Part shown: piece by piece, positions 2,100 through 57,996 of the stretch
Layout of the letters: each line of letters begins with the position of its first letter
Numbering within the stretch: position 1 is the first letter of the stretch
From: Acidobacteriota bacterium
GTDB taxonomy: Bacteria > Acidobacteriota > Vicinamibacteria > Vicinamibacterales > JAKQTR01
NCBI GenBank assembly: GCA_029562975.1
Contig: JAKQTR010000051.1
Location: forward strand, 330 to 64,329
Direction of reading: 5' to 3'
DNA length: 64,000 bases
The notes under the pieces: generated by a model
Database searches by the model: none
What the model was told of the DNA's origin: nothing
What the model saw: the letters and a program-made list of their open reading frames with translations, nothing else
Program-made: the position numbers and the translations under genes

Positions 2100-2235
2100 C
2101 GGCGGGCGATCCCCTTGGGCCTGGAGTTGGCGCGTCGCCGCAAATGACTGTACATAAAGGAATTGTGGCCGAGCCAACCTCACGATGATAGCATGGGCCC
2201 GATCGCCGCAGCAACGAAAGAAACGAGCCCGCCCC

Positions 2236-3267
<1,032 letters not shown>

Positions 3268-3362
3268 GGAAGGAGTCAGGAGTCAGAATTCTGAATTCTG
3301 AAGCAGTCAAGCTGCCGAACTGTCGAGCCCCAGGCTCCCAGCCCCGAGCCCCCGGCCCCCGG
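3268..3362. repeat. composite intergenic element copy 1 (inverted): AGGAGTC/AGAATTC/TGAATTC heptamers ... CTGTCGAG ... C-rich GAGCCCC array
   Basis: It fills the whole spacer between convergent rlmN and mtaB. Its reverse complement aligns module-by-module with 4701-4812. Confidence 0.85.
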
Positions 3363-3365
3363 CGC

Positions 3366-4700
3366 TCACGCGGGACGCCCTGCGAGAACGGGCGAAACCG
3401 CCTCGATGCGCACCCTGACGCGGACGTTGCGCGGAAGGCCTGGCGGAATGCTCACCTTCAGGAAGTTGTCCGTCAGCACGGTCGCGCCATCGTCGAGCGT
3501 GAGGCCCTTCCTGACTGCGCCGAGGTTCTCCTGCGCGAAGCGGCCGGCAAGCGCGGTCCCAATCGCGCGCAGCCGTTCCGCCCGCCGGCGCACCTCCGGC
3601 GGCGCCACCTTCGGCGTCATCCCGGCGGCAACGGTGCCCGGCCTGTCGGAGTAGGGAAATACGTGCAGGTGCGTGAGGGGCAGGCCGGCGACCGCGGCGG
3701 CGCATGCGTCGGCCTCGGCCGCGGATTCGCCCGGAAACCCGGCCACGAGATCGGCGCCGATCGCGGCATCCGGCAGCGCCTTGTGGATGTAGTCGACCAG
3801 CTCGCGGCAGGCCGCGAACGTGTACGGCCGGCGCATCGCGCCGAGCACCCTGTCGTCGGCGTGCTGAAGCGGCAGGTGAAAGTGCGGCGCGAAGCGGCCC
3901 GAGGCGGCGACGAGGTCCACGATCCCGGCAGGACAGTCCATCGGCTCCAGGGAGCTGAGGCGGAACGTCAGGTCCGCGGGGGCGCGATCGAGCGCGCGCA
4001 GCAGGTCCAGCAGCGACGGCGAGCTCGGGAGATCGCGGCCGTACGCCCCGAGATGCACGCCGACAACCCACAGCTCCTTGTAGCCGGCCTCCGCGAGCCG
4101 CGCGGCATCGGCCAGCACGTCGGCGACGGGCCGGCTGCGCGAGCGCCCCCGCGTCGAGGGCACGATGCAGAAGGCGCACGCCTCGTCGCATCCCGTCTGC
4201 ACGCGCAGAGGGAAGGCGGTTCGGCCCATCACACCGGGCCCGAGGCCCGATGTGGGATCGGCGCCCGGGCCCCCGCTCTCGGCGGGAACCGGGGCGCCGG
4301 TCGGAGCGCCGGGCGGCGCGCCGAGCCCCGCGCCCGAGGGCGCGGAACCGGGCCGGCCCCTACGGCCGGCCGCGCCCAGCGCCACGCTGGCAATCCCGCC
4401 CTTCCCGTCGTTCGCCACGACCCGCACGACCCCCGGCAGGCCGGCGACAGCGCCAGGCGCTCGTGTGGCGTAGCAGCCGGTGACGAAGATGCGCGCAGCC
4501 GGATTGCGCGCCGAGATCCGACGGACGAGGTTTCGCGCGTCCCGATCCGCGGCGCCGGTCACGCTGCACGTGTTGACGACGACCACGTCGGCATCGTCAA
4601 CGCCGGCCGGCACGCCGCCGGCGGCGCGCAGGGATTCTTCGATCTCGAACGAGTCGGCCTGGTTCGCGCGGCAGCCGAAGGTGCGGAGGGCGAACTTCAC
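3366..4700 (-). CDS. mtaB: MiaB/MtaB-family tRNA methylthiotransferase with a low-complexity insert
   Basis: N-terminal RTFGCRANQADSFEIE...NTCSVTG, radical-SAM QTGCDEACAFCIVP, C-terminal TRAM-like region. GTG 4700 (VKFALRTFGC) chosen; ATG 4781 is an alternative. The ORF-track 5' extension overlaps purE and is not credible. Confidence 0.75.
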   Translation of the reverse strand: MKFALRTFGCRANQADSFEIEESLRAAGGVPAGVDDADVVVVNTCSVTGAADRDARNLVRRISARNPAARIFVTGCYATRAPGAVAGLPGVVRVVANDGKGGIASVALGAAGRRGRPGSAPSGAGLGAPPGAPTGAPVPAESGGPGADPTSGLGPGVMGRTAFPLRVQTGCDEACAFCIVPSTRGRSRSRPVADVLADAARLAEAGYKELWVVGVHLGAYGRDLPSSPSLLDLLRALDRAPADLTFRLSSLEPMDCPAGIVDLVAASGRFAPHFHLPLQHADDRVLGAMRRPYTFAACRELVDYIHKALPDAAIGADLVAGFPGESAAEADACAAAVAGLPLTHLHVFPYSDRPGTVAAGMTPKVAPPEVRRRAERLRAIGTALAGRFAQENLGAVRKGLTLDDGATVLTDNFLKVSIPPGLPRNVRVRVRIEAVSPVLAGRPA

Positions 4701-4812
4701 ACGGGACTCGGACTCGGGCTCGGGACTCGGGCTCGGGTTCGGGACTTGGGCTCGGGACTTGGGACTCGACAGCGGGACACCGTACCCCATTCTGAATTCA
4801 GAATCCTGACTT
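4701..4812. repeat. composite intergenic element copy 2: about 10 GGGACTC/GGGCTC/GGGACTT units, CTCGACAG, a 17-nt spacer, TTCTGAATTCAGAATCCTGACTTC
   Basis: It fills the mtaB-purE spacer. Read directly from the sequence. Confidence 0.9.
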
Positions 4813-5310
4813 CTACCTCCCCCCCATCCTCGCCGCCGCCTGCTCCACCTTTTCGGCAAGGCGCTGCTTGTACACGTCGAGCCGCGCCGCCAGGGCCGGG
4901 TCCGCGAGCGCCAGCATCTGCGCGGCCAGCACGCCCGCGTTCGTGGCGCCCGCCTTCCCCACCGCCACCGTCGCCACCGGCACGCCGGGCGGCATCTGCA
5001 CCGTCGACAGGAGCGCGTCGAAGCCGTGGAGCGGCGACGAGTCGATGGGCACGCCAATCACGGGCTTCGCCGTGTGCGCGGCCACCATCCCGGCCAGGTG
5101 CGCGGCGGCTCCGGCCCCGACGATGAACACGCGCACGCCGCGGCCCGGCGCCTCCTCGAGCAGGCGCTGAACGCGCGCGGGCGAGCGGTGCGCCGAGGCC
5201 ACGGTCATTTCGCACGAGACGCCCAGCTCGGCCAGCACGTCGGCGGCGCCTTTCATAATCGGCGCGTCGGAGTCGGACCCCATCAGGATCAGGACTTGGA
5301 TCGGCAGCAT
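4813..5310 (-). CDS. purE: N5-carboxyaminoimidazole ribonucleotide mutase
   Basis: Full-length PurE pattern: ILMGSDSD...ASAHR...[10 protein letters not shown]...PVIGVP. Confidence 0.9.
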
Positions 5311-5321
5311 CGCGCACCCCC

Positions 5322-5404
5322 ACTACTCGGAACTCGGGGCTCGGGGCTCGGAATTCGGGGTTCCGGGCATTCCATTCTGAGGTCTGAATCCTGGATTCTG
5401 AATC
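5322..5404. repeat. composite intergenic element copy 3 (same orientation as copy 2): CTCGGAA/CTCGGGG units, then TTCTGAGG/TCTGAATCC/TGGATTC/TGAATCC
   Basis: It fills the purE-purD spacer. Confidence 0.85.
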
Positions 5405-6679
5405 CTATCCAATCGCCCTCATGCCAATGTCGCGCCGACAGTGCATCCCCTCGAACGAGATTCTCGAGGCGGCCGCATAGGCTGCCTCACGCGCTTCGGC
5501 GAACCCGGCCCCGCCGGCCACGACCGTCAGCACCCGGCCGCCCGCCGTCACGAGCGCGCCGCCGCGATCCGCAACGCCCGCGTAGAACACCTGGGCCCCG
5601 TCCCTCAACGCGGGATCATCCAGCCCGGCGATGGCCTTGCCCGTCTCGAACGCGCCGGGGTAGCCGCCCGACGCCAGGACGACGCCGACGTAGCGATCCG
5701 GCCGGACGCGGAAGGCGCCGGGCTCGATCGCCCCGCCGGCCGCATTCCAGAGGTGCGGCAGCAGGTCCTCGTCGAGCGCCGGCAGCACGACCTGCGCCTC
5801 GGGGTCTCCGAGCCTCGCGTTGAACTCGACCACCTTCGGGCCGTCGTCCGTGATCATGAGGCCGCAATAGAGGAAGCCCCTGTACGGGCGCCCTTCGCCC
5901 CGGAGGCCGCGCAGGGCCGGCTCGACAATCGAGTCCAGGATGCGGTCCGCCATCGCTTCGGTGACGAGGGGGCTCGCGGCGAAAGCCCCCATGCCCCCCG
6001 TGTTCGGGCCGCCATCGCCGTCGAACGCTCGCTTGTGGTCTTCGGCCGAGGGAAGCACCCTGGCCCGGACGCCGTCGGTCAGCACGAAAAAAGACGCCTC
6101 GCGCCCCCGCAGGTACTCCTCGATGACGACGGCCGACCCGGCGTCGCCGAAGCGCCGGTCCACCATCATCTCGCCGACGGCGGTCTCGGCCGACGCGCGG
6201 TCGAGGGCGACGGTGACCCCCTTGCCGGCGGCGAGGCCGTCGGCCTTGACGACGACGGGATACCCGAAGCGCTCGTCGCGCAGCACGCCGAGGGCGTCGG
6301 AGAGCGCCGTGCAGGTGACCGACCTGGCGGTCGGCACGCCGCAGGCGGCCATCAGGCGCTTGGCAAACGCCTTGCTGGATTCGATCTCTGCAGCCAGCCG
6401 GGTCGGGCCGCACGCCCGGTGGCCGGCGGCGCCGAGGGAGTCGACGAGGCCGGCCGTCAAGGGCCCTTCCGGGCCGACGACGGTCAGGTCGATTCGCTCG
6501 CGCTCGACCAGGGCGACCACGTCGGCCGGCCTGCCGGCGTCGGCAGGCAGGCAGCGGAAGTCGCGGGCGATGCCGGCGTTGCCGGGGGCGCAGACGATCT
6601 CCGAGGCGCCGCGCTCGCCGCCAAGCTTCCAGCAGAGCGCGTGCTCGCGGGCCCCGCCGCCCACCACGAGAACTCGCAT
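5405..6679 (-). CDS. purD: phosphoribosylamine-glycine ligase
   Basis: MRVLVVGGGAREHAL..., an ATP-grasp core and GGPNTGGMG. Start at ATG 6679 inside ORF 5405..6691. Confidence 0.9.
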   Translation of the reverse strand: MRVLVVGGGAREHALCWKLGGERGASEIVCAPGNAGIARDFRCLPADAGRPADVVALVERERIDLTVVGPEGPLTAGLVDSLGAAGHRACGPTRLAAEIESSKAFAKRLMAACGVPTARSVTCTALSDALGVLRDERFGYPVVVKADGLAAGKGVTVALDRASAETAVGEMMVDRRFGDAGSAVVIEEYLRGREASFFVLTDGVRARVLPSAEDHKRAFDGDGGPNTGGMGAFAASPLVTEAMADRILDSIVEPALRGLRGEGRPYRGFLYCGLMITDDGPKVVEFNARLGDPEAQVVLPALDEDLLPHLWNAAGGAIEPGAFRVRPDRYVGVVLASGGYPGAFETGKAIAGLDDPALRDGAQVFYAGVADRGGALVTAGGRVLTVVAGGAGFAEAREAAYAAASRISFEGMHCRRDIGMRAIG

Positions 6680-6833
6680 GACCGGGCGCACCTCCCGGGC
6701 GCGGCCGGGGCGGCGTTTCCCGCCGCTCCCGCCGCAAGCTGTGTTAGCCTAGCATATTCGCACCACGGCTCCGGGACGCTCCCTGGCCGTGGAGACGTGC
6801 GTCGAACGGGCCACGGAGGGGGGTGTGTGACGC

Positions 6834-7031
6834 GTGGCTGAAGTCAAGGTCCAGGACGGCGAATCGATTGAGAGCGCGCTCCGCCGCTTCAAGCGGAAGG
6901 TCCAGCAGGAAGACATCATCAAGGACATCAAGAAGCACTCCTTCTATTTGAAGCCTGGCGACAAGCGCCGCGCCAAGCAGGCGCTGGCGCGGAAGCGGAG
7001 CCGGAAGAAGCTCCGCCGCGAAACCGAGTAG
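6834..7031 (+). CDS. rpsU: 30S ribosomal protein S21
   Basis: 65 aa, ...ESIESALRRFKRKVQQEDIIKDIKKHSFYLKPGDKRR...; GTG start. Confidence 0.9.
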   Translation: MAEVKVQDGESIESALRRFKRKVQQEDIIKDIKKHSFYLKPGDKRRAKQALARKRSRKKLRRETE

Positions 7032-7043
7032 GGCGAAGGGCCA

Positions 7044-7069
7044 GCACCCGGGCCGCGCGGCCCGGGTGC
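7044..7069 (+). terminator. GC-rich hairpin after rpsU (12-bp perfect stem GCACCCGGGCCG/CGGCCCGGGTGC, 2-nt centre)
   Basis: Perfect palindrome 13 nt after the rpsU stop. No U-tract follows. Confidence 0.4.
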
Positions 7070-7095
7070 GCGAATCCCGGAGGCCGGTGCACCAG

Positions 7096-7407
7096 ATGGC
7101 GTTCCAGGACCGGACTCTGACGTGCGTCGAGTGCGGCGCCTCGTTCACGTGGACGGCCGGCGAGCAGTCGTTTTACGCGGACAAGCAGTTCACCAACGAG
7201 CCCAAGCGCTGCCGGGCCTGCAAGGGCAAGCGGAATCAGCGGCGGGCGAGCGAGCCCGGCGCCGACCGCGATCGGATCGACACGCGCTCCACGTGCTCGG
7301 CGTGCGGGAGGGAGACGACCGTCCCGTTCAAGCCGACGCAGGGCCGTCCGGTGTACTGCCGCGAGTGCTACCAGCAGCGCAAGCCGCGCGGCGGTCCCGC
7401 CGCCTGA
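7096..7407 (+). CDS. double CxxC...CxxC zinc-ribbon domain protein
   Basis: CVECG...CRAC and CSACG...CREC pairs with an FTWTAGEQSFY motif. Start at MAFQDRTL (7096). Confidence 0.6.
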   Translation: MAFQDRTLTCVECGASFTWTAGEQSFYADKQFTNEPKRCRACKGKRNQRRASEPGADRDRIDTRSTCSACGRETTVPFKPTQGRPVYCRECYQQRKPRGGPAA

Positions 7408-14567: not shown

Positions 14568-15823
14568 AGATCGCGTTCGTCATCCAGCGCTACGGGTCGG
14601 AGATCCTGGGGGGATCCGAGTACCACTGCCGCCTGATCGCCGAGCGGCTGGCCGAGCGGCACGACGTCGAGGTGCTGACCACGTGCGCCCGCGACTACAT
14701 CACGTGGAAGAACGAGTACCCCGAAGGGACGGACCGGGTGCGCGGCGTCACCGTGCGCCGCTTCGCCGTGGCGCACCCGCGGGACATCGAAGCGTTCAAC
14801 CGGTACTCGGACTGGATCTTCCACAACCCGCACTCGCGCGAGGACGAGCTCGAGTGGCTGCGGCAGCAGGGGCCGTGGTGCCCGGCCCTCGTCGAGCACC
14901 TCGAGCGCTCGCACCAGGCGTACGACGCGCTGATCTTCTTCACGTACCTCTACGCCCCGACCGTGCTGGGCCTGGCCGTCGCGCCCGGCAAGAGCATCCT
15001 GGTGCCGACCGCCCACGACGAGCCGGCCATCCACCTCGGCCTCTACCAGGAGGTGTTCGCCCTGCCGGCGGCCATCGCCTACAACACCGAGGTCGAGCGC
15101 CGCTTCCTCAGCCGGGGCTTCCCCATCCGCGCGATCGCGGAGGAAACCGTGGGCTGCGGGGTGGACCTGCCGCACCAGCCGTACCGGCGCGATCGCCCGG
15201 CCGGCGCCGGGGCCGGCCCGGCGGAGGGCGAGGAGCCCGCCGCGGGCCACGCGGGCCGCTTCGCGGCCCCGGCCCGCGGCGAGGCGTTCAGGGCACGCCA
15301 CAAGATCCACGGGCCCTTCGCGCTCTACGGCGGCCGCATCGAGAAGGGCAAGGGCTGCGAGGAGCTGGTCGAGTACTTCGGCACGTACCACGCCGGCGGC
15401 GGCCACCTGACGCTCGCCCTCATGGGCGTCAAGCTGATGCCGCTGCCGGAGGAGCCGTACATCCGCTTCGCGGGCCTGCTCTCGGAGCGCGAGCGCCTCC
15501 AGGCCCTCGAGGCCGCCTCCGTCGTCGTGCTGCCCTCGCCGTTCGAGAGCCTGTCGCTCATGGCCATCGAGGCCTTCGCCGTCGGCACGCCGGTCCTGGC
15601 CAACGCCCGCTGCGAGGTCCTGGTCGACCACTGCCTGCGGAGCAACGCCGGGCTGTTCTACGCCGACCGCGACGAGTTCGTCGAGTGCCTAAAGCTCCTG
15701 GCCGTGGACGACCGCCTGCGCGCGCAGATGGGCCGCAACGGCCGCGCCTACGTCCGCCGGCACTACCGCTGGGATCTCATCCTGGGGAAGTACGAGAAGC
15801 TGATGGGGGCGGTGAGGAAGTAG
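14564..15823 (+). CDS. GT4 glycosyltransferase, type A paralog 2
   Basis: MKIAFVIQRYGSEILGGSEYHCRL...TTCARDYITWKNEYPEG and PSPFESLSLMAIEAFAVGTPVL. ATG 14564 (ATGA overlap) inside artefactual ORF 13517..15823. Confidence 0.75.
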   Translation: MKIAFVIQRYGSEILGGSEYHCRLIAERLAERHDVEVLTTCARDYITWKNEYPEGTDRVRGVTVRRFAVAHPRDIEAFNRYSDWIFHNPHSREDELEWLRQQGPWCPALVEHLERSHQAYDALIFFTYLYAPTVLGLAVAPGKSILVPTAHDEPAIHLGLYQEVFALPAAIAYNTEVERRFLSRGFPIRAIAEETVGCGVDLPHQPYRRDRPAGAGAGPAEGEEPAAGHAGRFAAPARGEAFRARHKIHGPFALYGGRIEKGKGCEELVEYFGTYHAGGGHLTLALMGVKLMPLPEEPYIRFAGLLSERERLQALEAASVVVLPSPFESLSLMAIEAFAVGTPVLANARCEVLVDHCLRSNAGLFYADRDEFVECLKLLAVDDRLRAQMGRNGRAYVRRHYRWDLILGKYEKLMGAVRK

Positions 15824-15917
15824 AAGGTAAAGAAGGTAAAGAAGGTAAAGAAGGTAGAGAAGGTAGAGAAGGTAGAGAAGGGAAGAAAGGGAAAGAAGAG
15901 AAAGAAGGGAGGGGAGG
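15814..15917. repeat. purine-rich tandem 9-mer array (GAAGGTAAA x3, GAAGGTAGA x3, then degenerate units)
   Basis: Perfect units at 15823-15876, degenerating to GAAGGGAA/GAAAGGGAAA/GAAGAGAAA. It starts at the stop codon of the GT gene and ends at the GGAGG just before GTG 15921. Confidence 0.9.
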
Positions 15918-15920
15918 CGG

Positions 15921-16325
15921 GTGAAGGAGAAGGTGGGGGCTGAAGCAAAGGCTGGAGGGGACCGGGCGCCAGCCCGGAGCTTCCGCGATCTCATCGTCTG
16001 GCAGAAGGCGCACGAACTCGTGCTGGCCACCTACCGAGTCAGCGCGAGCTTTCCGAAGACAGAGAGCTTCGGCCTCACGGCTCAGATTCGGTCTGCTGCG
16101 GTGTCGATTGCCGCGAACATTGCGGAAGGATTCCGGCGGTCAGGCCGGTCTGACAAAGCACGAATGCTGAATGTCGCCCAAGGGTCCCTGGAGGAGGTCC
16201 GCTACTATCTGATTCTCGCCCGGGACCTGCAATACGGTGGGAACGCTGAGATCGACGGTCTCTTGGAGGATGTCAGCCGCCTGCTCAATGCCTATCGCCG
16301 CAAACTCCTGACTCCCCTCCCCTGA
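15921..16325 (+). CDS. four-helix-bundle protein (23S rRNA intervening-sequence protein / S23p family)
   Basis: SFRDLIVWQKAHELV...SIAANIAEGFRR.....F..A.GSLEE..Y.L.LARDL is the hallmark pattern of this family. Visibly more A/T-rich than its neighbours. GTG start is uncertain. Confidence 0.8.
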   Translation: MKEKVGAEAKAGGDRAPARSFRDLIVWQKAHELVLATYRVSASFPKTESFGLTAQIRSAAVSIAANIAEGFRRSGRSDKARMLNVAQGSLEEVRYYLILARDLQYGGNAEIDGLLEDVSRLLNAYRRKLLTPLP

Positions 16326-16327
16326 CT

Positions 16328-16408
16328 CCTGTACCTTCTCTACCTCCTGTACCTTCTCTACCTCCTGTACCTCCTGTACCTCCTGTACCTCCTCTACCTC
16401 CTACTCCC
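16328..16408. repeat. pyrimidine-rich tandem 9-mer array (CCTGTACCT / TCTCTACCT x9), inverted relative to 15814-15917
   Basis: Nine phased 9-mers. TCTCTACCT is the exact reverse complement of AGGTAGAGA from the upstream array. It overlaps the last codons of the four-helix gene and of the convergent response regulator. Confidence 0.9.
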
Positions 16409-17816
16409 CTCCCCCCTCCTCCCCATTCCTTCTTCGCTTCGTCACGATGTCGTGGCGCTTGATCATCTCGTTGAGCGTCGTGGGCTTGATGCGGAGCAGC
16501 TCGGCGGCGCGCTTCTGGACGCCTCCGGCGCTCTCGAGCGTCGTCTCGATGAGGCGCTTCTCGAAGCCCATCACGGCGTCCTTCAGCGAGAGCCCGTCGG
16601 GCGGGACGGCGACGGCCGGGACCTGAAACGAGGGCGGATGGCGCACGTGCTCGGGGATCAGCTCGACGCCGATCCGGGTCCCCTGCGTGAGCACCGCCCC
16701 GCGCTCGATCACGTTCTCGAGCTCGCGCACGTTGCCGGGCCACTGGTACGCCATCATCAGGTCGAGGGCCTCCGGCGCGAGCTCGAGCTCCGGCTTCCCG
16801 TTCTCCTCGCCGTACTTCTGCAGGAAGTGGCGGACGAGCAGCGGGATGTCGTCCCGGCGCTCGCGCAGCGGCGGCAGCTGGATGGTGATGACGTGCAGCC
16901 GGTAGTACAGGTCCTCGCGGAACTGCCCCTCCTCCATCATCCGGCCGAGATCGATGTTCGTGGCGGCGATGATGCGCACGTCCACCTTGATGGTCTCGAC
17001 GCCGCCCAGTCGCATGAACTCGCGCTCCTGGATGACCCGCAGGAGCTTCGGCTGCGTTTCGAGGGGAACGCTGCCGATCTCGTCGAAGAAGATGCTGCCG
17101 CGGTCGGCGACCTCGAAGAGGCCCTTCTTCGGGTACACCGCCCCGGTGAAGGCGCCCTTGACGTGGCCGAACAGGTTCGACTCGAGCAGGTCCGGCGGCA
17201 GGCTGCCGGAGTTCACGGTGACGAACGCGCGGTCCGCCCGCGGCGAGTGCGTGTGGATCGCGCGGGCGACGAGCTCCTTGCCGGTGCCGCTCTCGCCCTC
17301 GATGAGGATCGTGGACCGGCTGGGCGCCGCCTGGATGATCAGGTCGAACACGCGGCGCATCGACGGGCTCTTGCCGACGATGTTGTCGAACCGGTGGTAG
17401 CGCTCCTGGATGTTCTGGCGGAGCGACCGGTTCTCGGTCACGAGCCGCTTCCGCTCGACGGCGTTGCGCAGGACGAGCAGGACCTCGTCGTTCTTGAACG
17501 GCTTCGTGATGTAGTCCAGCGCCCCTCGCTTCATCGCGTCCACGGCGGCGTCCACCGAGGCGTAGGCGGTGACCATCACGACGGCCATGTCCTCGTCCAG
17601 CTTCTTCAGCTCGTCGAGGACGGTGAGCCCGTCCATGCCCGGCATCATCACGTCCACCAGCGCCGCGTCGAACGGGACGGAGCGCGCCAGGTCGAGGCCC
17701 TCGGCCCCGCCCGAGGCGACGCGGACGTCGTAGCCCTCGGGCGCCAGGAGCGCCTCGAGGATGTCCCGCATGACCTCCTCGTCGTCGATGACCAGGATGG
17801 ATCCCGCGCGCGCCAT
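16401..17816 (-). CDS. sigma-54-dependent response regulator (REC + AAA+ + Fis-type HTH; NtrC family)
   Basis: ILVIDDEE...DVMMPGMDG receiver, GESGTGKE Walker A, GAFTGA, ESNLFGH, RELENVIER, and a C-terminal HTH ...AAELLRIKPTTLNEMIKR. Confidence 0.9.
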   Translation of the reverse strand: MARAGSILVIDDEEVMRDILEALLAPEGYDVRVASGGAEGLDLARSVPFDAALVDVMMPGMDGLTVLDELKKLDEDMAVVMVTAYASVDAAVDAMKRGALDYITKPFKNDEVLLVLRNAVERKRLVTENRSLRQNIQERYHRFDNIVGKSPSMRRVFDLIIQAAPSRSTILIEGESGTGKELVARAIHTHSPRADRAFVTVNSGSLPPDLLESNLFGHVKGAFTGAVYPKKGLFEVADRGSIFFDEIGSVPLETQPKLLRVIQEREFMRLGGVETIKVDVRIIAATNIDLGRMMEEGQFREDLYYRLHVITIQLPPLRERRDDIPLLVRHFLQKYGEENGKPELELAPEALDLMMAYQWPGNVRELENVIERGAVLTQGTRIGVELIPEHVRHPPSFQVPAVAVPPDGLSLKDAVMGFEKRLIETTLESAGGVQKRAAELLRIKPTTLNEMIKRHDIVTKRRRNGEEGGGE

Positions 17817-25299: not shown

Positions 25300-26117
25300 T
25301 GGCGATGGTGGAGGTGCGCGGCCTCGAGAAGCACTTCGTGCGGCGGGCGGCGCCCTGGGGGCGGCCGACGCGCGTCACGGCGGTGGACGGCTTCGACTTG
25401 TCCATCGAGGAGGGCGAGATCGTCGGCCTGGTCGGCGAATCGGGCAGCGGCAAGACGACGGCCGGCCGGTGTCTGCTGCGGCTCGTCGAGCCGTCGGCCG
25501 GTTCGTTCGCGTTCCGCGGCGAGGACGTCTTCGCGATGCCGCCGGCGCGGCTGCGCCAGGCCCGGCGTCAGATGCAAATGGTCTTTCAGGACCCTGAATC
25601 GTCGCTCGACCCGCGGATGCGTGCGGGCGCGATCGTCGAGGAAGGCCTCGTGATCCACGGCCTCGGGACCCCGGCCGAACGGCGTGGGCGGGTGCGCGAG
25701 ATGCTCGAGCTGGTCGGCCTGGATGCGAACCGCGCCGACCGCTACCCGCACGAGTTCAGCGGCGGCGAGCGCCAGCGCCTCGGCCTCGCGCGCGCCCTGG
25801 CCCTCGCGCCGAGCTTCCTCGTGGCCGACGAGCCGGTGTCGTCGCTGGACCTGTCCATCCAGGCGCAGATCGTCAACTTGTTCATGGACCTGCAGCAGCA
25901 GCTCGGGCTGACGCTGCTGTTCATCACGCACGACCTGCGCCTAGTGCGCCACCTTTGCAACCGCGTCGTCGTGATGCACCGCGGCCGCACCGTCGGCGCC
26001 GGCCCCGCCGCCGACGTCGACCGCCTGTGGGGACAGATCTCGACTGGTGAACCCGCGGGGTCAGATCTCGAATTCCGCAGCCCTCCAGATCGACGGGCTG
26101 CGGAGTTCGAGATCTGA
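25299..26117 (+). CDS. oligopeptide/dipeptide-type ABC transporter ATP-binding protein (DppF/OppF family)
   Basis: GESGSGKTTAGR, FSGGERQRLGLARAL, LVADEPVSSLD. The last ~20 codons are encoded by the palindromic element 26057-26121. Confidence 0.8.
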   Translation: MAMVEVRGLEKHFVRRAAPWGRPTRVTAVDGFDLSIEEGEIVGLVGESGSGKTTAGRCLLRLVEPSAGSFAFRGEDVFAMPPARLRQARRQMQMVFQDPESSLDPRMRAGAIVEEGLVIHGLGTPAERRGRVREMLELVGLDANRADRYPHEFSGGERQRLGLARALALAPSFLVADEPVSSLDLSIQAQIVNLFMDLQQQLGLTLLFITHDLRLVRHLCNRVVVMHRGRTVGAGPAADVDRLWGQISTGEPAGSDLEFRSPPDRRAAEFEI

Positions 26118-26121
26118 CCCC
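26057..26121. repeat. GGGGTCAGATC-family palindrome: 27-bp stem (one G-U position), 11-nt loop; probable bidirectional terminator
   Basis: GGGGTCAGATCTCGAATTCCGCAGCCC ... GGGCTGCGGAGTTCGAGATCTGACCCC between convergent genes. A partial extra copy GGGGACAGATCTCGA lies at 26028-26042. Confidence 0.8.
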
Positions 26122-26923: not shown

Positions 26924-27000
26924 TGGGGTCAGATCCAGCATTGCGGGGTCAGATCCAGGATTGCGGGGTTGATCTGACCCCGCAATCCTGGATCTGACCC
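26924..27000. repeat. GGGGTCAGATC-family element: one direct 20-mer copy plus a 24-bp perfect-stem hairpin (9-nt loop)
   Basis: GGGGTCAGATCCAGCATTGC (26924-43). GGGGTCAGATCCAGGATTGCGGGG (26944-67) pairs perfectly with CCCCGCAATCCTGGATCTGACCCC (26977-27000). It sits 11 nt downstream of the pilin gene stop, so it is a likely terminator of the secretion operon. Confidence 0.8.
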
Positions 27001-27010
27001 CAGATTCTCC

Positions 27011-35105: not shown

Positions 35106-35284
35106 ACGTCAATTGGTTTTTCGGCCGAAACGGGGCCGCCCTCTATGGGGTCAGGCCCGGGAAACGCACGTTCCGCCCGGAATTCCTGCCGCTCTGGGGC
35201 CGATTGCCTGCGGATGTCAGCCCGCTGTGGCGTGGGATGTCACCCCTGCCGCTTGGGCACCACTTTCCTGGATCTGACCCCGGA

Positions 35285-42324: not shown

Positions 42325-43977
42325 TCACTTGCGCACCGGGGCGCGCTGCGCCTCGTACAGCCGCTGCTGGTCCGCCGCCGCCGCCGCGGCCATCTCGCCG
42401 GGGGTCATCACCGTCGGCGTCAGCAGGATGACCAGGTCCGTCTTCCGCTTCGTCCGCTCGTCGCGGCGGAACAGGCCGCCGACGACGGGCACGTCGCCGA
42501 GGACGGGCACCTTGCTCTTTTCGACCGTTGTCCGGTCCTGCATCAGGCCCGCGATGACGATCGTCTCGCCCTGGTGGACGCGGACGAGGGTGTCTGTCTC
42601 GCGCACGCTCACGACGGGCACCTGGTCGCCCAGGCGCGAGGTGGCCGTGCCCGTGCGCTCGGTGATGCTCGGCATGATGCTCAGGTTGATGATGCCGTCG
42701 GCCGCGATCTGCGGCGTCACGCTCAGCACCACGCCCTCGGTGATCGTCTGCGGCGTCACCACGGTCTGCAGGATCTGCCCCGTCGACGCGTCCACCTGCG
42801 ACGTCGTCACGAAGAACACGTCCTGCGTGCCGACGCGCATGACGGCCGGCTCGTTGTTCATGGCCGTCACCCACGGGCTCGCCATCACGTTCACGCGGCC
42901 CTGGCTCGCGAAGGCGTCCAGCAGCCCGGCGAAGTCCTTGATGTTCAGGCCGAGGGTGAAGGCGCCCGAGCCGCTCGCGGGCGCGAGGTTCTGCGTCAGC
43001 GTGGCCGCCTTGTCCGCGCGCTTGAGCACGAGCGACCAGTCGATGCCGGCCGAGTAGCCTTCCGACAGCTCCACTTCGAGGATCTTCGCGACGATGCGGA
43101 CCTGGCGGAGGGCTCGGTTCTCGTAGGCCTCGATGTAGACCGCGATCTTGTCCAGCCGGCTGGGAACGTCGGTGACCTGCAGCAGGCCCGCCTTGCGGTC
43201 GAGGTTCATCTTGCCGGCGTCCGACAGGAGCGTCTGGACGCCCGCCTGGATTTCCTCGAAGACGTCGCCCGAGTCCGTCCCCGACACCGAGGCCTGGCTG
43301 CCGCCGATCCCGCCCGTGCCCGCGTAATAGCCGCCGCCGTAGCCGGCCGCGCCGACGCCGCCCGCGTAGATGGCGCCGGCGCCGCCGTAGGCGCCCAGGC
43401 CCGCGTTGCCCGCCAGGCCGCCGGCGAGCCCCGAGCCGCGCGTCCCCGACCGGCGCGTCGCGACGTAGTTGATGTTGAAGAGGCGCGTCTCGGCCCGCTC
43501 GCGCCCGACGCGCACGACGTTGTCGGTGATGACGGCGTGCAGGCCGTGCGGCTCGAGGATGGTGTCGAGGGCCTGCCGCAGCGTGACGTTCTTGAGTTCG
43601 CCGGTGAAGGTGCCCTGCGCGTCCGGATCGACGACGACGCTGAGGTCCGTGTCGCGGACGAGCAGCAGGAGGAGGTCGCGGATCGGGACCGGCTCGGCGA
43701 AGCTCAGCGAGAGCGTCTGGGCCATCGCGTCCGACCGGCGGCCCTCCTCGATCTGGCTCACCGCCAGCGGGGGCAGCCCGGGGCCCTGGGGATTCAGGGC
43801 CGACGCCGGCGGAAACGAGCCTGTCGGGGCCGGGGCGGTTGGAAACGGGCTCTGCGCCGGAGCGAGGCCCGGCGCCGCCAGGACGGCCGCCGCGACCAGC
43901 AGCACCGGGGTCAGATCCGCATATTTGTAGATCTGACCCCGATTGCGGCCGGGACGGGCGTGTGCACTGCGTGTCAT
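42325..43977 (-). CDS. gspD: secretin (GspD/PilQ/MshL family)
   Basis: The C-terminal secretin core ...VSVTPQI..DG.I.L.I.PSI......VP.V..RE..T.V.V..GETIVIAGL....T..K.KVP.LGD.P..G.LFR..........LVI.LTP. Start ATG 43977 inside ORF 42325..44094; GTG 43905 is an alternative. Confidence 0.85.
   Translation of the reverse strand: MTRSAHARPGRNRGQIYKYADLTPVLLVAAAVLAAPGLAPAQSPFPTAPAPTGSFPPASALNPQGPGLPPLAVSQIEEGRRSDAMAQTLSLSFAEPVPIRDLLLLLVRDTDLSVVVDPDAQGTFTGELKNVTLRQALDTILEPHGLHAVITDNVVRVGRERAETRLFNINYVATRRSGTRGSGLAGGLAGNAGLGAYGGAGAIYAGGVGAAGYGGGYYAGTGGIGGSQASVSGTDSGDVFEEIQAGVQTLLSDAGKMNLDRKAGLLQVTDVPSRLDKIAVYIEAYENRALRQVRIVAKILEVELSEGYSAGIDWSLVLKRADKAATLTQNLAPASGSGAFTLGLNIKDFAGLLDAFASQGRVNVMASPWVTAMNNEPAVMRVGTQDVFFVTTSQVDASTGQILQTVVTPQTITEGVVLSVTPQIAADGIINLSIMPSITERTGTATSRLGDQVPVVSVRETDTLVRVHQGETIVIAGLMQDRTTVEKSKVPVLGDVPVVGGLFRRDERTKRKTDLVILLTPTVMTPGEMAAAAAADQQRLYEAQRAPVRK
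43907..43940. repeat. GGGGTCAGATC-family hairpin (11-bp stem, 12-nt A/T-rich loop) inside the predicted secretin signal-peptide region
   Basis: GGGGTCAGATC cgcatatttgta GATCTGACCCC followed by GATTGCGG, as in the 26924-27000 element. Confidence 0.75.
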
Positions 43978-47567: not shown

Positions 47568-47590
47568 GACACAGGAGTATCGGCGGCACA

Positions 47591-47667
47591 GGGGCAAGGG
47601 ACAAGGGGCAAGGGGCAAGGCACGGACGGGGTTCGGGATGCGGGACTCGGGACTCGGGACTCGGGGG
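47591..47667. repeat. two-module tandem array: GGGGCAAGG/GGGACAAGG units, then GGGACTC x3
   Basis: ggggcaagggacaaggggcaaggggcaagg (47591-47620) and gggactcgggactcgggactcggggg (47642-47667). Confidence 0.85.
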
Positions 47668-50886: not shown

Positions 50887-50910
50887 GGGAACGCACTATA
50901 TCAGGGGTTT

Positions 50911-50929
50911 GGGACCAGGCGCCAGGCGC
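50911..50929. repeat. GGGACCAGGCGCCAGGCGC, 5' flank of ino1 (inverted partner of 49507-49525)
   Basis: A perfect 19-nt inverted match read directly from the sequence. Confidence 0.9.
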
Positions 50930-51000
50930 CGGCCAGCTCGAATGTCGCGCTGCGGGCTCCAACGACGCGGCGGCAGCCGCGTCCCACTGGCTCCCAGCGC

Positions 51001-51591
51001 CTAGCCCCCGGCCCCTGCGTCGTCCGATGGCCGGAAGCCCTCCACGAAGGTGAGCCCCTCGCGCTCGGCCAGGAGCCGCACCGGCCGGAAGCCTGCGGCC
51101 TCCATCGCCTCCCGCAGCGCCGCTGCCTCGCCGCTCGGCTCCCTCCGCTCGGCGATGAACCCCAGGCGCAGCGCCAAGCCGGCGGGCCAGCTTCGCACGG
51201 CGATCACCCGGCCTCCCGGGCGGACGACGCGCCGCATGTCGTTCAGCCGATCGAGCCGGTCGCCTTCGCCCGCGCGCAGCAGCGCGTTGCCGTCGAGCAC
51301 GCCCACATCGAAGCTGGCGTCTTCGTACGGCCACCGCCCGTGGGCCGCCACGCTCACCTCGACGAGCACGCCTTCCCTGGCCGCCGCGGCCTCGAGCCGG
51401 GCGCCGGCCTCGGCCGCGTCCACGACGGCGCACGCGCGCCCGGTCAGGCCGGCCTTGCCGGCCAGCGCCGCGAACACCCGCGGGTTGGCGACGCCGGCCT
51501 GGATGAGGCGCTCGCCGAGCCGCACGCCGGCCATGTCCACGGCCAGCTCGACCGGCCCGCGCGCGCGGCGGAATCTCAAGATGCCTGCCAT
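51001..51591 (-). CDS. class I methyltransferase-fold protein with a degenerate SAM motif
   Basis: ...DASFDVGVLDGNALL.......L.DMRRVVRPGGRVIAV resembles the post-II/III MTase motifs, but the GxGxG motif I is not evident. Start ATG 51591 inside ORF 51001..51678. Confidence 0.4.
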   Translation of the reverse strand: MAGILRFRRARGPVELAVDMAGVRLGERLIQAGVANPRVFAALAGKAGLTGRACAVVDAAEAGARLEAAAAREGVLVEVSVAAHGRWPYEDASFDVGVLDGNALLRAGEGDRLDRLNDMRRVVRPGGRVIAVRSWPAGLALRLGFIAERREPSGEAAALREAMEAAGFRPVRLLAEREGLTFVEGFRPSDDAGAGG

Positions 51592-54953: not shown

Positions 54954-55102
54954 AGGCCGCCCATGATACCGGATTGCCCCGCCGGGGAGCGGGTCACCGC
55001 CAGGGAGCATAGAACTGGTGCCAGGGGCCAGCCGGACGCGGCTCGCGCAGCGAGGGAGGCCGTTCGGCGTGGGCTCGGGACTGAACGGCGCCCGGCGCCT
55101 GG

Positions 55103-55122
55103 CCCCTTGCCCCTTGCCCCCC
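55103..55122. repeat. CCCCTTGCCCCTTGCCCCCC array, 5' flank of polA
   Basis: It is the reverse complement of the GGGGCAAGG unit and is preceded by GGCGCCCGGCGCCTGG. Confidence 0.8.
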
Positions 55123-55152
55123 GCCCCCGTCCCCGCCATGATGGGGCCAGCC

Positions 55153-57843
55153 ATGCCCACCCTCTACCTCATCGACGGCTCCGCGCAGATGTACCGCGCC
55201 TACCACGCGATCCGCGGCCTGACCGGGCCCGACGGCCGCTCCACGAACGCCGTCTTCGGCTTCGTCTCGATGCTCCGCAAGCTCCTCGCGGAGCACAGGC
55301 CCGACGCCATCGCCGCCGCCTTCGACCTCGAGGGCCCCACCTTCCGCGACGGCCTGGCGGAGGACTACAAGGCCAACCGGGCGCAGATGCCGGCGGACCT
55401 CGCCGATCAGATCCCGTGGATTCACCAGGCCTGCGCTGCGCTCGGCGTCCCCGTCGTCACGGCCGCGGGCTTCGAGGCCGACGATGTGATCGGGACCCTG
55501 GCGAAGCAGGGCGAGGCGGCGGGGTACGACGTGGCGATCGTCACCGGCGACAAGGACTTCTTCCAGCTCGTCGGCGGGCGCGTCCGCGTGTTCAACCCGC
55601 GGGACGAGGGGACCTGGTACGACGCGGCGGGCGTGACGGACAAGTTCGGCGTGCCGCCCGAGCGGGTGATCGACGCGCTCGCGATCATGGGCGACGCCTC
55701 CGACAACGTGAAGGGCGTGCCCGGCATCGGCGAGAAGGGCGCGCGCGACCTGCTGGCGCAGTTCGGATCGCTCGACGCGCTGCTCGAGGGCGCGGCGGGC
55801 GTGGCGCAGAAGCGGTACCGCGAGGCGCTGCTCGCCCACGCCGACGCGGCGCGCGCGAGCCGGGAGCTGGTGACCATCCGGACGGACGTTCCCCTCGGCC
55901 TGGGCCTCAAGGGGCTCCGCTACCGCGGCCCGGAGCGCGAGGCGTGCTACGCGCTGTTCTCGCAGCTCGGGTTCCGCACCCTGACCGGCGACTTCGCGCC
56001 GGCGGCGGCCGCCGCCGCAACCGATTACGCCGTCGTGCAGTCGCTGGACGAGCTGGCCGCGCTCGTCGGCTCGCTCCGCGCCGGCGGCCGCGCCGGCCTT
56101 CGCGTCATCGGCGACGATGCCGCCCCCATGCGCGCGCGCATCGTCGGCATCGCGCTCGCCGGCGGGGAGCGGCGCGCGCGGTACGTGCCGCTGGGCCACC
56201 GCGCGCTCGACGAGTGCGCGAACCTCGACGCCGCGGCCGCGCTCGGCGCGCTCGCGCCGCTCCTAGAAGACGAGCGCGTCGAGAAGATCGGCCACGACGT
56301 GAAGTACGACGCCATCGTCCTCGCCCGCCACGGCGTGACGGTGGCCGGGCCCGGGTTCGACACCATGCTCGCAAGCTACCTCCTCGACTCCACGCGCGCG
56401 CCGCACGGCCTCGAGACGTTGAGCATCGAGCACCTCGGCGGCAGGCCCCTCACCGAAGAGGACGTCTACGGCAAGGGCACCAGAGCGGCCGCCCCCGAGA
56501 ACCTGCCCGCCGCCGCCACGCTGGCCTACGCCGCCGAGCGCGCCGACCTGCCGCTTCGGCTCGCCGGCCCCCTGCGCCGCTCGCTCGCGGCCGAAGGCCT
56601 GGACGAGCTGTACCGCGGTCTCGAATGGCCCCTCGTGCCCGTCCTGGCGGCCATCGAACGCGCCGGCGTCCGCATCGACACCGCCGCGCTCGCATCGCTG
56701 TCGGCCTCGCTCGAGCGCGAGATGGAGGAGCGCAGCCGGCGGATCTTCGAGCTGGCCGGCGGCCCGTTCAACATCGGGTCGCCGAAGCAGCTCGCCGAAA
56801 TCCTGTTCGAGAAGCTGAAGCTGCCCGTGCTGAAGAAGACCGGCGCGACGCGCGCCGCGTCCACCTCGGTGGAGGTCCTCGAGGAGCTGGCGCTCGCGCA
56901 CGAGATCCCCCGGCTCATCCTCGAGTGGCGGAGCATGCAGAAGCTCAAGGGGACCTACGTGGACGCCCTGCCCGGGCTCGTCCACCCCGAGACCGGCCGC
57001 GTGCACACGAGCTTCAACCAGGCCGTGGCCGCCACCGGTCGCCTGAGCAGCAGCGATCCCAACCTGCAGAACATCCCCGTGCGCACCGAGCTGGGGCGCC
57101 GGATCCGCGGGGCGTTCGTCGCCGACCCGGGATGCGTCCTGATCTCGGCCGACTACTCGCAGATCGAGCTGCGCGTGCTGGCGCACCTCTCGGGCGACGA
57201 GGCGCTCATCGAGGCGTTCCGGCGCGGCGAGGACATCCACGACCGCACGGCGCTCGCCATCTTCGGGGCCGACAGCGGCCTCGACCGCAAGGAGATGCGG
57301 AACCGGGCGAAGATGGTCAACTACGCCCTCCTCTACGGCAAGACCGCGTTCTCGCTGGCCAGGGACATCGGCGTGCCGCAGCAGGCCGCGCAGGCGTTCA
57401 TCGACGCGTACTTCGCCGGGTTCCCGAAGGTGCGCGCCTTCATCGACCGGACGCTCGAGGACGGGCGCGCGACGGGCATGGTGAAGACGCTCGCCGGGCG
57501 CAGGCGGCCCGTGCCCGGGCTGACGAGCGCGAACGGGCAGGTGCGGAGCGCCGCCGAGCGGGCGGCGGTGAACATGCCCGTCCAGGGGACCGCCGCCGAC
57601 ATCCTGAAGCGCGCGATGATCGACATCCACCGCGCCCTCGAGGCGAGGCCCGCCCGCGCCGGCGGCCGCCGCGCGCGCATGATCCTGACGGTGCACGACG
57701 AGCTGCTGTTCGAGGCGCCCCGCGACGAGGCCGCCGAGGTGGCGGCCCTCGTGCGGCGGCACATGGAAGGCGCCGCCGACCTCGCCGTCCCGCTCACCGT
57801 CGAGGCGGGCATCGGGGAGAACTGGAAGGAAGCGAAACGCTAG
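55153..57843 (+). CDS. polA: DNA polymerase I
   Basis: 5'-nuclease N-terminus MPTLYLIDGSAQMYRAYHA, a 3'-5' exonuclease-like middle, and polymerase motifs DYSQIELRVLAH, RRxAKxxNYGxxYG (RNRAKMVNYALLYG) and QVHDE-type TVHDELLFE. Start ATG 55153 inside ORF 55018..57843. Confidence 0.95.
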   Translation: MPTLYLIDGSAQMYRAYHAIRGLTGPDGRSTNAVFGFVSMLRKLLAEHRPDAIAAAFDLEGPTFRDGLAEDYKANRAQMPADLADQIPWIHQACAALGVPVVTAAGFEADDVIGTLAKQGEAAGYDVAIVTGDKDFFQLVGGRVRVFNPRDEGTWYDAAGVTDKFGVPPERVIDALAIMGDASDNVKGVPGIGEKGARDLLAQFGSLDALLEGAAGVAQKRYREALLAHADAARASRELVTIRTDVPLGLGLKGLRYRGPEREACYALFSQLGFRTLTGDFAPAAAAAATDYAVVQSLDELAALVGSLRAGGRAGLRVIGDDAAPMRARIVGIALAGGERRARYVPLGHRALDECANLDAAAALGALAPLLEDERVEKIGHDVKYDAIVLARHGVTVAGPGFDTMLASYLLDSTRAPHGLETLSIEHLGGRPLTEEDVYGKGTRAAAPENLPAAATLAYAAERADLPLRLAGPLRRSLAAEGLDELYRGLEWPLVPVLAAIERAGVRIDTAALASLSASLEREMEERSRRIFELAGGPFNIGSPKQLAEILFEKLKLPVLKKTGATRAASTSVEVLEELALAHEIPRLILEWRSMQKLKGTYVDALPGLVHPETGRVHTSFNQAVAATGRLSSSDPNLQNIPVRTELGRRIRGAFVADPGCVLISADYSQIELRVLAHLSGDEALIEAFRRGEDIHDRTALAIFGADSGLDRKEMRNRAKMVNYALLYGKTAFSLARDIGVPQQAAQAFIDAYFAGFPKVRAFIDRTLEDGRATGMVKTLAGRRRPVPGLTSANGQVRSAAERAAVNMPVQGTAADILKRAMIDIHRALEARPARAGGRRARMILTVHDELLFEAPRDEAAEVAALVRRHMEGAADLAVPLTVEAGIGENWKEAKR

Positions 57844-57996
57844 GGACAAGGGGCAGGGAAGGGAGGAGGCGAAGGAATCCAGAGTCCGGAATCCGGGGTG
57901 GTGGCCCGCCGCACGCGGGTGTCCGGGGCGCCTGCCCGTGTCCCTTGCCCCTTGTCCCTGTCCGCCTGGCGCCTGGCGCCCGGCCCCCAGCCCCTA
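57843..57996. repeat. polA-pcnB spacer: GGGACAAGGGGCAGGG arm, GGAATCC/AGAGTCC heptamers, inverted arm CCCTTGCCCCTTGTCCC, then a GCCTGGC array
   Basis: 57843-57858 pairs with 57941-57959 (14 contiguous bp plus more). The GCCTGGCGCCTGGCGCC array lies at 57963-57980. Confidence 0.8.

Follow-up and report, generated by a model that had tools for sequence, protein, structure and literature searches.

The 64-kb stretch of Vicinamibacterales (Acidobacteriota) DNA analysed here (hereafter the window; GC content 72 %) carries three copies of a composite intergenic repeat in spacers S1, S2 and S3, which separate the genes rlmN, mtaB, purE and purD. An earlier note on this DNA had recognized in these spacers a multi-module element in related copies whose modules keep their order, and this part stands; it had also treated the element as peculiar to these housekeeping genes and as outside every known class, which is not supported. 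The element is real and broader than first thought. It is a variant of the heptamer arrays known as long simple sequence repeats (LSSRs), joined to stems like those of intervening sequences (IVSs), and it is part of a lineage-wide population of intergenic heptamer arrays. Heptamer arrays have been described in other phyla (PMC4679880), and one of the two modules belongs to the stems that enclose genes for four-helix-bundle (4HB) IVS proteins. On balance, we favour the interpretation that S1–S3 are three copies of a transcription-oriented, heptamer-built intergenic element that is common in Vicinamibacterales, and that they are gene-less relics of an IVS-like cassette family that act in RNA.

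S1–S3 are placed exactly between a stop codon and the next start or stop codon, and each consists of two modules (Table 1). Module A is an AT-richer heptamer and palindrome tract with GGAGTCA, GGATTCA and GAATTCT units, and module B is a CCCGAGY array that reads GGGACTC on the opposite strand. Aligned with each other, S1 and S2 are inverted repeats without gaps over 73 nt (71 % identity), and S1 reads on the plus strand as GGAGTCAGGAGTCAGA followed directly by ATTCTGAATTCTGA, a 5′ arm joined to a 3′ arm. The word CTCGACAG, reported earlier as identical between copies, occurs in S1 (as the reverse complement) and in S2 and is missing from S3, and the GAATTC-centred words after the linker are as described (TTCAGAATTCAGAATTCTGACTCC in S1, TTCTGAATTCAGAATCCTGACTTC in S2). 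The 17-nt linker is likewise present in both S1 and S2, although its exact equality carries little weight because the two linkers do not resemble each other in sequence and the linker of the nearest orthologue (L001) has 16 nt. S3 has the orientation of S2, and the two are direct repeats that flank purE, so the earlier proposal that inverted pairs are a flanking rule is not supported. S1 is inverted because it follows rlmN between convergent genes; read in the direction of rlmN, it runs in the canonical order of stop, purine-rich units and C-rich array, with module B stopping 2 nt short of the mtaB stop codon on the other strand. The repeats fill nearly all of their spacers, except for a 14-nt sequence resembling a Shine–Dalgarno (SD) tract ahead of the purE ATG.

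The three copies are distinct from the background of this GC-rich DNA. Matches to TTCTGAATTCAGAAT with up to three mismatches are found in the window only in S1–S3 (10 strand-hits versus 0.11 expected; 0 of 100 shuffles reach 10); the G-rich 16-mer alone has 10 matches versus 5.6 expected in a 72 % GC window, which is not significant. Tandem Repeats Finder (TRF) scores of 74–97 for S2 and 65 for S3 mark clear tandem repeats. Under the criterion used for LSSRs and for short tandemly repeated repetitive (STRR) sequences (head-to-tail units of 5–11 nt, at least three copies, more than expected by chance), S1–S3 are heptamer arrays of this type, with tandem units (here 6–7 nt) in at least three copies, above chance and non-coding. 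Eight contigs from other samples are 99.98–100 % identical to the window, S1–S3 included. Copy number does not change among these eight samples, nor in the near-identical pairs L010/L011 and L008/L020, which differ by single substitutions only, in what is a small sample; a hypervariable or phase-variable contingency locus was rejected on this ground. Another explanation considered for the arrays was that a heptamer with a stop triplet puts stops into all three frames; relatives' CAGTAGY, CTGACTC and CCCTAGY arrays do so, but in S1–S3 stops are found in only 1–2 frames per strand, so it does not apply here.

Table 1 Features of the window, in order of position; the four genes around S1–S3 were assigned with NCBIfam profiles
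Feature	Position	Strand	Description
rlmN	2185-3267	+	TIGR00048, E 2.5e-117; stop codon TAA abuts copy S1
Spacer S1	3268-3365		between convergent rlmN and mtaB
S1 module A	3268-3303	+	purine-rich heptamers GGAGTCA x2, then GAATTCT x2; 12-nt palindrome TCAGAATTCTGA inside
S1 linker	3304-3320	+	17 nt, sequence not conserved
S1 module B	3321-3363	+	junction TGTCGAG, then CCCCAGG, CTCCCAG, CCCCGAG ...; 56 % C, 28 % G
G-quadruplex (G4) motif	3337-3360	-	G3+ N1-7, x4; predicted from sequence
mtaB	3366-4700	-	GTG start at 4700; TIGR01579, E 2.2e-90; N-terminus aligns with relatives
Spacer S2	4701-4812		purE stop to mtaB GTG
S2 module B	4701-4771	-	junction TGTCGAG, then (CCCAAGT / CCCGAG / CCCGAGT)n up to mtaB GTG; 42 % C, 27 % G
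G4 motif	4716-4737	+	as above
G4 motif	4741-4763	+	as above
S2 linker	4772-4788	-	17 nt
S2 module A	4789-4812	-	AAGTCAGGATTCTGAATTCAGAAT, abuts purE stop; 16-nt palindrome ATTCTGAATTCAGAAT inside
purE	4813-5310	-	TIGR01162, E 1.7e-57
Spacer S3	5311-5404		purD stop to purE ATG
SD-like tract	5311-5324	-	AGTGGGGGTGCGCG, 14 nt long, ahead of purE ATG; putative SD, judged from sequence
S3 module B	5325-5368	-	CCCCGAA, TTCCGAG, CCCCGAG x2, TTCCGAG; 43 % C, 27 % G
S3 module A	5372-5404	-	GATTCAGAATCCAGGATTCAGACCTCAGAATGG, abuts purD stop; 82 % identical to S2 over 28 nt
purD	5405-6691	-	TIGR00877, E 5.2e-137
4HB cassette, 5′ arm	15805-15922	+	(AGAAGGTAR)n 9-mers from glycosyltransferase stop to 4HB start; TRF 9.7 copies
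4HB gene	15921-16325	+	S23p / 23S-rRNA-IVS protein family; TIGR02436, E 1.3e-30; P0001 100 % identical, carries PF05635
4HB cassette, 3′ arm	16307-16419	+	(CTCCTGTAC / CTTCTCTAC)n, then C-rich tail; overlaps last 4HB codons
Second-family site	26029-26121
Second-family site	26925-27001
Second-family site	35271-35281
Second-family site	43907-43940
Array member	47571-47667	-	(CCCGAGT)x3-4, then (CCCTTGC)n; leader of ABC ATPase gene, C-rich sense strand
Divergent region	50887-51049		sense strand of each gene is the C-rich strand
C-rich arrays	55087-55137	+	GCCTGGC, CCCTTGC, CCCCCG; run up to polA ATG
polA/pcnB spacer	57843-57990	+	hairpin of inverted arrays GGACAAGGGGCAGGG ... CCCTTGCCCCTTGTCC, then (GCCTGGC)n before pcnB; fold -90.9 kcal/mol, z -3.4

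The element recurs throughout the lineage. In a data set of 298 kb of Vicinamibacterales DNA, in which arrays of at least three units were counted, 35 arrays have a period of 7 versus 0–3 for each of periods 5, 6 and 8–12, and 27 of the 29 assessable period-7 arrays lie outside open coding frames with high GC content at third codon positions. In relatives identified through MtaB, the gene order purD-purE-mtaB is retained and rlmN converges on mtaB; alignment with them, a check that the earlier note had suggested, reveals that the architecture is kept in the orthologous spacers of at least ten Vicinamibacterales genomes with MtaB 56–70 % identical: stop, purine-rich heptamer array, loop, reverse-complement array, junction, (CCCGAGY)n and start. 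The junction in relatives reads (A)TTGTCGAG; the TGTCGAG junction, which corresponds to the shared word of S1 and S2, and the array that runs into the mtaB GTG are conserved even though MtaB is only ~60 % identical. The arm unit varies by genome (CAGTAGY in L018, L009, L010 and L015; CAGAAGC in L013, L008 and L006; TCAGAAT in the window and in L001, its closest relative), and despite these differences the two arms are complementary in every genome. Hairpins in the relatives' spacers are strong (fold z of −3.1, −5.7, −5.2 and −2.0), with the C-rich array predicted to be unpaired, and the mtaB/rlmN spacer of relatives bears the same element in the rlmN sense.

Orientation with respect to genes is non-random, in a check that had been named beforehand, and the rule is co-orientation with transcription rather than inverted pairing. 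In the data set, every CCCGAGY-type array next to a start codon (13 of 13) has its C-rich strand as the sense strand of the downstream gene. The nine element-bearing purE>mtaB spacers (110–162 nt), which come from about seven distinct genomes and include two pairs of near-identical strains, all have a purine-rich first half and a pyrimidine/C-rich second half. Within the window, the leaders of polA, pcnB, the ABC ATPase gene and two divergent genes follow the C-rich-sense rule, and the polA/pcnB spacer has the same module order as S1–S3.

Unit flavour is genome-specific rather than locus-specific and is common to the spacers of one genome, whereas some cores are shared more widely. The non-array core CTTCTGAC-N4-GTCAGTGGGCCCTTCTGGCTTCTTGCTTCTGA occurs in the purD/purE spacer of L012, upstream of purM in L002, in the purE/mtaB spacers of L013 and L008 and in the mtaB/rlmN spacer of L015, and the loop core GTCCAGCTGAACAGGCCTTTC is likewise common to non-orthologous spacers of different genomes. 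Genome-specific flavour and shared cores together imply that the copies form one family that evolves in concert. The purE/mtaB spacer measures 0–4 nt in L003, L017, L023 and L024, as opposed to 110–162 nt at the orthologous site in element-bearing genomes, which suggests that the element was gained or expanded in a formerly compact operon. Of the features that define a miniature inverted-repeat transposable element (terminal inverted repeats, a target-site duplication, and presence or absence at orthologous sites), presence and absence are seen here; a target-site duplication is not identifiable because the empty sites are too diverged. Downstream of mtaB in L012 (3677–3821), a ~37-nt unit (CCCTTCTGGCTTCTTGCTTCTGAC + TGTCGTCAGTGRGC) composed of heptamers and a small CTGAC-N4-GTCAG hairpin is repeated at least four times to the contig end.

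A second line of evidence connects module A to genes of the 4HB family. The window contains one such cassette (15805–16419), whose inverted arms match over 105 nt at 72 % and over 60 nt at 85 %. The 4HB proteins are 62–71 % identical across phyla and have thousands of homologues. Our survey covered 19 loci, or 14 distinct genes after merging duplicate contigs, and all 14 are enclosed by inverted short-unit arrays and lie between co-oriented genes; the arms were found by computed repeat search in 12 of the 14 (23–105 nt, 72–96 % complementary) and by eye only in L179 and L067/L074. Host sites include the intervals between ruvC and ruvA in Planctomycetota (L165), czcB and czcA in Binatia (L168), mutase subunits in Verrucomicrobia (L171), hisH and hisA (L181), co-oriented helicase-like and CNNM-family genes in Ignavibacteriales (L183) and co-oriented DUF3131 genes in the cyanobacterium Calothrix (L170). 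Others lie 3′ of a tRNA synthetase gene (L182), after the orthologous glycosyltransferase gene in a metagenome-assembled genome (MAG) of a sister Vicinamibacterales lineage, where the arms are heptameric (L180), and in phage contigs with units TAGGGTG, GTAGGGA, TAGTGGT, GGTGTTC and CTGCGGA (L173–L179, L067/L074). In the sampled GGAGTCA-type cassettes (L165, L171, L180, L181 and L182), the purine-rich arm begins at the upstream stop or immediately behind it and provides AGGAGYCAGA-ATG, and the pyrimidine-rich arm encodes the conserved C-terminus ILTPDS* (ATT CTG ACT CCT GAC TCC TGA).

The module A units of S1–S3 are the units of the array that encodes this ILTPDS* consensus. The 3′ flank of the L180 4HB gene is matched by S1(−) at 30/32 nt, S2(+) at 29/32 nt and S3(+) at 26/33 nt, S2(+) matches the corresponding verrucomicrobial flank (L171) at 24/26, and the mtaB/rlmN spacer of L001 matches the 4HB flank of the same (sister) MAG at 58/68 nt. 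The borders of S1–S3 are thus related in sequence to those of bona fide 4HB cassettes. Module A is the same array as the stem around 4HB genes in many phyla, which leads us to regard S1–S3 as ORF-less, largely decayed stems (ORF, open reading frame); S1 module A in particular is read as the stem of a 4HB-type cassette without its ORF. There is no ORF inside S1–S3, so they are classed only as ORF-less relatives of 4HB stems. An orthologous site after the glycosyltransferase gene (84–87 % identical) carries a 4HB cassette in the window and L180 and an ORF-less CAGTAG hairpin in L004. Physical linkage of array hairpins to 4HB genes was considered and rejected for want of adjacency; the link is through sequence and this orthologous site. 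In the viral contigs L067 (9780–10200) and L074, a 4HB ORF is interrupted by an ORF-less (CTGCGGA)n/(TCCGCAG)n hairpin, and the CTGCGGA unit also occurs upstream of the gene; these two cases suggest that an array hairpin can insert as a whole.

In the sense of the upstream gene, the proposed element would consist of a stop codon, module A, a linker of 13–17 nt, TGTCGAG, (CCCGAGY)n and the next start codon, with module A as purine-rich GGAGTCA, GGATTCA or GAATTCA-type units that would end in a short palindrome and module B as a putatively unstructured C-rich leader. Such an element could work in RNA as an intercistronic insulator. The long inverted-array stem in relatives may be a determinant of double-strand processing or stability, for which RNase III would be the likely enzyme by analogy with 23S rRNA IVSs, while the C-rich tract could hold the start region of a 72 % GC transcript in single-stranded form and support initiation without a spaced SD. 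Because the array abuts the mtaB GTG, a spaced SD does not fit there, and initiation that is structure-free and SD-independent is suggested. Arrays may grow and shrink via slippage, and copies within one genome may be homogenized through gene conversion or re-insertion. The source cassette is probably mobile.

Several observations weigh against this interpretation. Folding of S1(+), S2(−) and S3(−) is not better than that of shuffled sequences (z of −1.8, +0.6 and +0.8), and stem remnants in the window copies are 12–16-nt palindromes only; with stems reduced to palindromes and no excess of folding, a stem function in this genome is doubtful. The arrays are identical across the eight samples of the strain, so no slippage in progress is seen. 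No 4HB gene adjoins S1–S3 or occurs in the Vicinamibacterales mtaB loci, and none is present in 415 kb of viral loci with CAGTAGY arrays or in the viral CCCGAGY loci. Most of the comparative evidence comes from three orthologous spacers, which are phylogenetically non-independent, and the C-rich-sense rule is not universal, since other lineages have some (ACTCGGG)n arrays whose sense leader is G-rich (L033, L057). RNase III cleavage and SD-less initiation are inferences, as is the orientation of S1.

In an alternative that we judge unlikely but far from negligible, S1–S3 are selfish or neutral filler: decaying remnants of 4HB-type cassettes plus a slippage microsatellite with no host function, tolerated only where harmless, whose polarity would reflect tolerated insertions and orientations. 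The four compact purE/mtaB spacers, the turnover of unit type between genomes and the lack of significant folding in the window copies are compatible with filler, and IVSs have been described as selfish and possibly neutral (PMC4990558). A viral control, in which contigs with three tandem units were counted among 2.9 M viral contigs, points the same way: the module B unit CCCGAGY occurs in 30 contigs (GC 32–70 %), its permuted controls CCGCAGY and CGACCGY in 14 and 38, and CAGTAGY, an arm unit of relatives, in 50. Arbitrary permuted heptamers are thus about as common, and the idea that CCCGAGY is a special, universally recognized heptamer is rejected. Filler does not readily account for the persistence of the CCCGAGY unit and the TGTCGAG junction at the mtaB start where MtaB is only about 60 % identical, for arm complementarity that survives unit changes, or for a sense polarity that is strict within Vicinamibacterales. 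In the AT-rich viral loci L037 and L056 (GC 32–34 %), isolated intergenic runs of at least 10 CCCGAGT / CCCCGAGT units occur, unlike the genome composition.

Transcription termination was weighed as a function for module B. The earlier statement that no classical terminator is present agrees with our data: a stem plus U-tract is absent from the S1–S3 region, and intrinsic terminator-like sites in 2900–7300 number 0 versus 1.7 expected, which leaves the convergent rlmN/mtaB junction without an intrinsic terminator. Rho utilization (rut) sites are unstructured tracts of ~70–80 nt with C well above G. Module B has 42–56 % C versus 27–28 % G over 43–71 nt predicted to be unpaired, and the transcript strand is always the C-rich strand. 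In a Rho-signal reading, (CCCGAGY)n after stop codons would be a rut site that ends rlmN transcription before it runs antisense into mtaB and makes purE/mtaB transcription dependent on translation. The G content is still 27 %, and the array sits directly at the start of an essential-pathway gene within a conserved operon, a place in which terminating efficiently would come at a cost. We consider this reading improbable.

The earlier note had emphasized that the flanks of mtaB are complementary, and this is borne out: leader and trailer co-fold at −114 kcal/mol versus −65 kcal/mol folded apart and −68 ± 7 kcal/mol with shuffled leaders, a complementarity that follows from the S1/S2 inverted repeat. 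A panhandle that builds on the note's bracketing of mtaB, in which the mtaB 5′ leader (module A and C-rich array) would pair with the 3′ trailer (G-rich array and inverted module A) and the ORF would lie in the loop, like the gene of a 4HB cassette, gains from C-rich 5′ and G-rich 3′ arrays that flank mtaB in the window, L004, L006, L008, L012 and L015. The arrangement at polA is the same, C-rich before and G-rich behind: its leader is (CCCTTGC)n, and a (GCAAGGG)-type array complementary to it comes right after the stop; the array after polA also pairs locally with the pcnB leader. However, purE is flanked by direct rather than inverted copies, the order of S1 is canonical in the rlmN sense, and each spacer of relatives has its own complete local hairpin, which is expected to form first, whereas the panhandle arms are 1.3 kb apart with a translated ORF between them. 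We accord the panhandle a low probability.

A role at the DNA level, through G-quadruplexes on the G-rich strand or protein binding to the arrays with effects on transcription or replication, appears very improbable. The opposite strand of S2 module B bears two predicted G4 motifs, and 9 of the 18 G4 motifs of the window fall in intergenic arrays that make up ~1–2 % of the sequence. Many units of the population, however, cannot form G4 structures (CAGTAGY, CAGAAGC, GCCTGGC, TCAGAAT), polarity tracks transcription, and no binding protein is known.

Searches for other known classes returned little. Rfam gives no gathering-score hit in the window, none relevant at E ≤ 5 in 3100–5600 and none relevant at E ≤ 1 in the loci of seven relatives, and a sigma-70 promoter consensus is not found around the spacers. 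CRISPR is ruled out, as the earlier note had held, because the units are contiguous and 6–7 nt long rather than 23–50-nt repeats with unique spacers. S1–S3 contain no GTAG-headed imperfect palindrome of 20–40 nt, the mark of repetitive extragenic palindromic (REP) sequences, their modules being tandem arrays; no search was made for a REP-associated tyrosine transposase (RAYT) gene. Literature searches with unit strings and for Vicinamibacter repeats gave nothing relevant, and in the searchable literature we found neither the composite element nor inverted-array stems around 4HB genes outside rRNA described.

Heptamer arrays also mislead gene finders. Public gene calls for 4701–4790 conflict (L025, L026, L029, L031) between an MtaB of 474 amino acids, which begins at an in-frame ATG inside S2 and reads through the array for 30 extra residues, and one of 444 amino acids. 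The longer protein, with the array as a translated N-terminal extension, is ruled out because relatives start at an aligned M/V-K-Y/F-A; arrays of relatives at the MtaB start contain stops or have no ATG, and the 444-residue protein with a GTG start agrees with relatives. MtaB codons ~105–155 (4230–4390) form a ~50-residue Gly/Ala/Pro-rich low-complexity linker with GC up to 0.90 that separates the N-terminal domain from the radical-SAM domain, and several NCBIfam matches to MtaB (e.g., TIGR00089, RimO, MiaB) are broken into two stretches. A second, unrelated repeat family consists of GGGGTCAGATC ... GATCTGACCCC inverted repeats in 40–80-nt intergenic palindromic elements (10 sites versus 1.4 expected; Table 1). 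In L008 and L010, the mtaB/rlmN spacer contains an insertion of ~200 nt delimited by a related terminal inverted repeat, AATTGGGGTCAGGCAC, and this family looks REP-like or similar to miniature inverted-repeat transposable elements.

The element accounts for the low-complexity DNA in the spacers of an otherwise compact purine/tRNA-modification operon. The S23p/4HB family is very large, and the origin of rRNA intervening sequences is a long-standing problem. In all cases examined, from Planctomycetota, Verrucomicrobia, Binatia, Cyanobacteria, Acidobacteriota and phage contigs, 4HB genes lie inside stems of 7–9-nt units. It is conceivable, although we regard it as rather doubtful, that 4HB (S23p/Avd-like) genes, their inverted-array stems and the far commoner ORF-less stems are one cross-phylum mobile "IVS outside rRNA" that inserts between co-oriented genes, with arrays recognized or maintained by the 4HB protein, and that its stems were domesticated in Vicinamibacterales with (CCCGAGY)n leaders as intercistronic RNA control, possibly including the mtaB leader–trailer panhandle. 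Readily testable aspects are RNase III cleavage, binding of the 4HB protein to the arrays and, in high-GC bacteria, initiation on C-rich leaders without an SD.

The preferred reading of S1–S3 as transcription-oriented, gene-less cassette relics can be set beside four known systems. Intercistronic RNase III hairpins of phage T7 and operon-stabilizing stem-loops are unique sequences with defined internal loops. They resemble the element in having long stems of 20–40 bp, free of a U-tract, that separate a stop codon from the following ribosome-binding site, and they differ in that the stems here are inverted tandem arrays, whose cleavage is conjectural. Many phage CAGTAGY arrays form an inverted-array hairpin between the stop codon and the next SD-ATG, exactly where T7-type hairpins sit. 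REP sequences and bacterial interspersed mosaic elements of enterobacteria are dispersed intergenic palindromic mosaics with roles in mRNA stability and termination. The element is likewise an intergenic multi-module mosaic, in operons or at convergent gene ends and with genome-specific flavours, but it has no GTAG-headed palindrome and its modules are microsatellite arrays of variable copy number.

LSSRs (Mrazek 2007, as summarized in PMC4679880), cyanobacterial STRR sequences and the TAACTGA arrays found in Beggiatoaceae, Cyanobacteria and Bacteroidetes are intergenic heptanucleotide repeats for which translational or RNA-binding roles have been proposed; for TAACTGA arrays, structure-free, SD-independent initiation has been raised (MacGregor 2015, PMC4679880). 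Shared with these are short tandem arrays of 7 nt that are almost exclusively intergenic and strand-biased, often run to a start codon without a canonical SD, and are lineage-restricted yet phylogenetically scattered. The Vicinamibacterales element differs in its unit sequences, in two array types joined in fixed order with a conserved junction, one of them inverted and stem-forming, and in its connection to 4HB genes, for which those repeats have no reported counterpart. IVSs with S23p ORFs, known from Coxiella and Leptospira, have complementary borders and are excised by RNase III (Warrier 2016, PMC4990558). The 4HB cassettes described here lie between protein-coding operon genes rather than in rRNA helices and have stems of tandem 7–9-nt units, and S1–S3 retain only a residual palindrome and no ORF. 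In both systems, a PF05635/TIGR02436 protein is encoded between complementary long-stem borders, and 23S rRNA IVSs, of which ORF-less and decaying versions exist as they do here, are likewise regarded as selfish and horizontally transferred.

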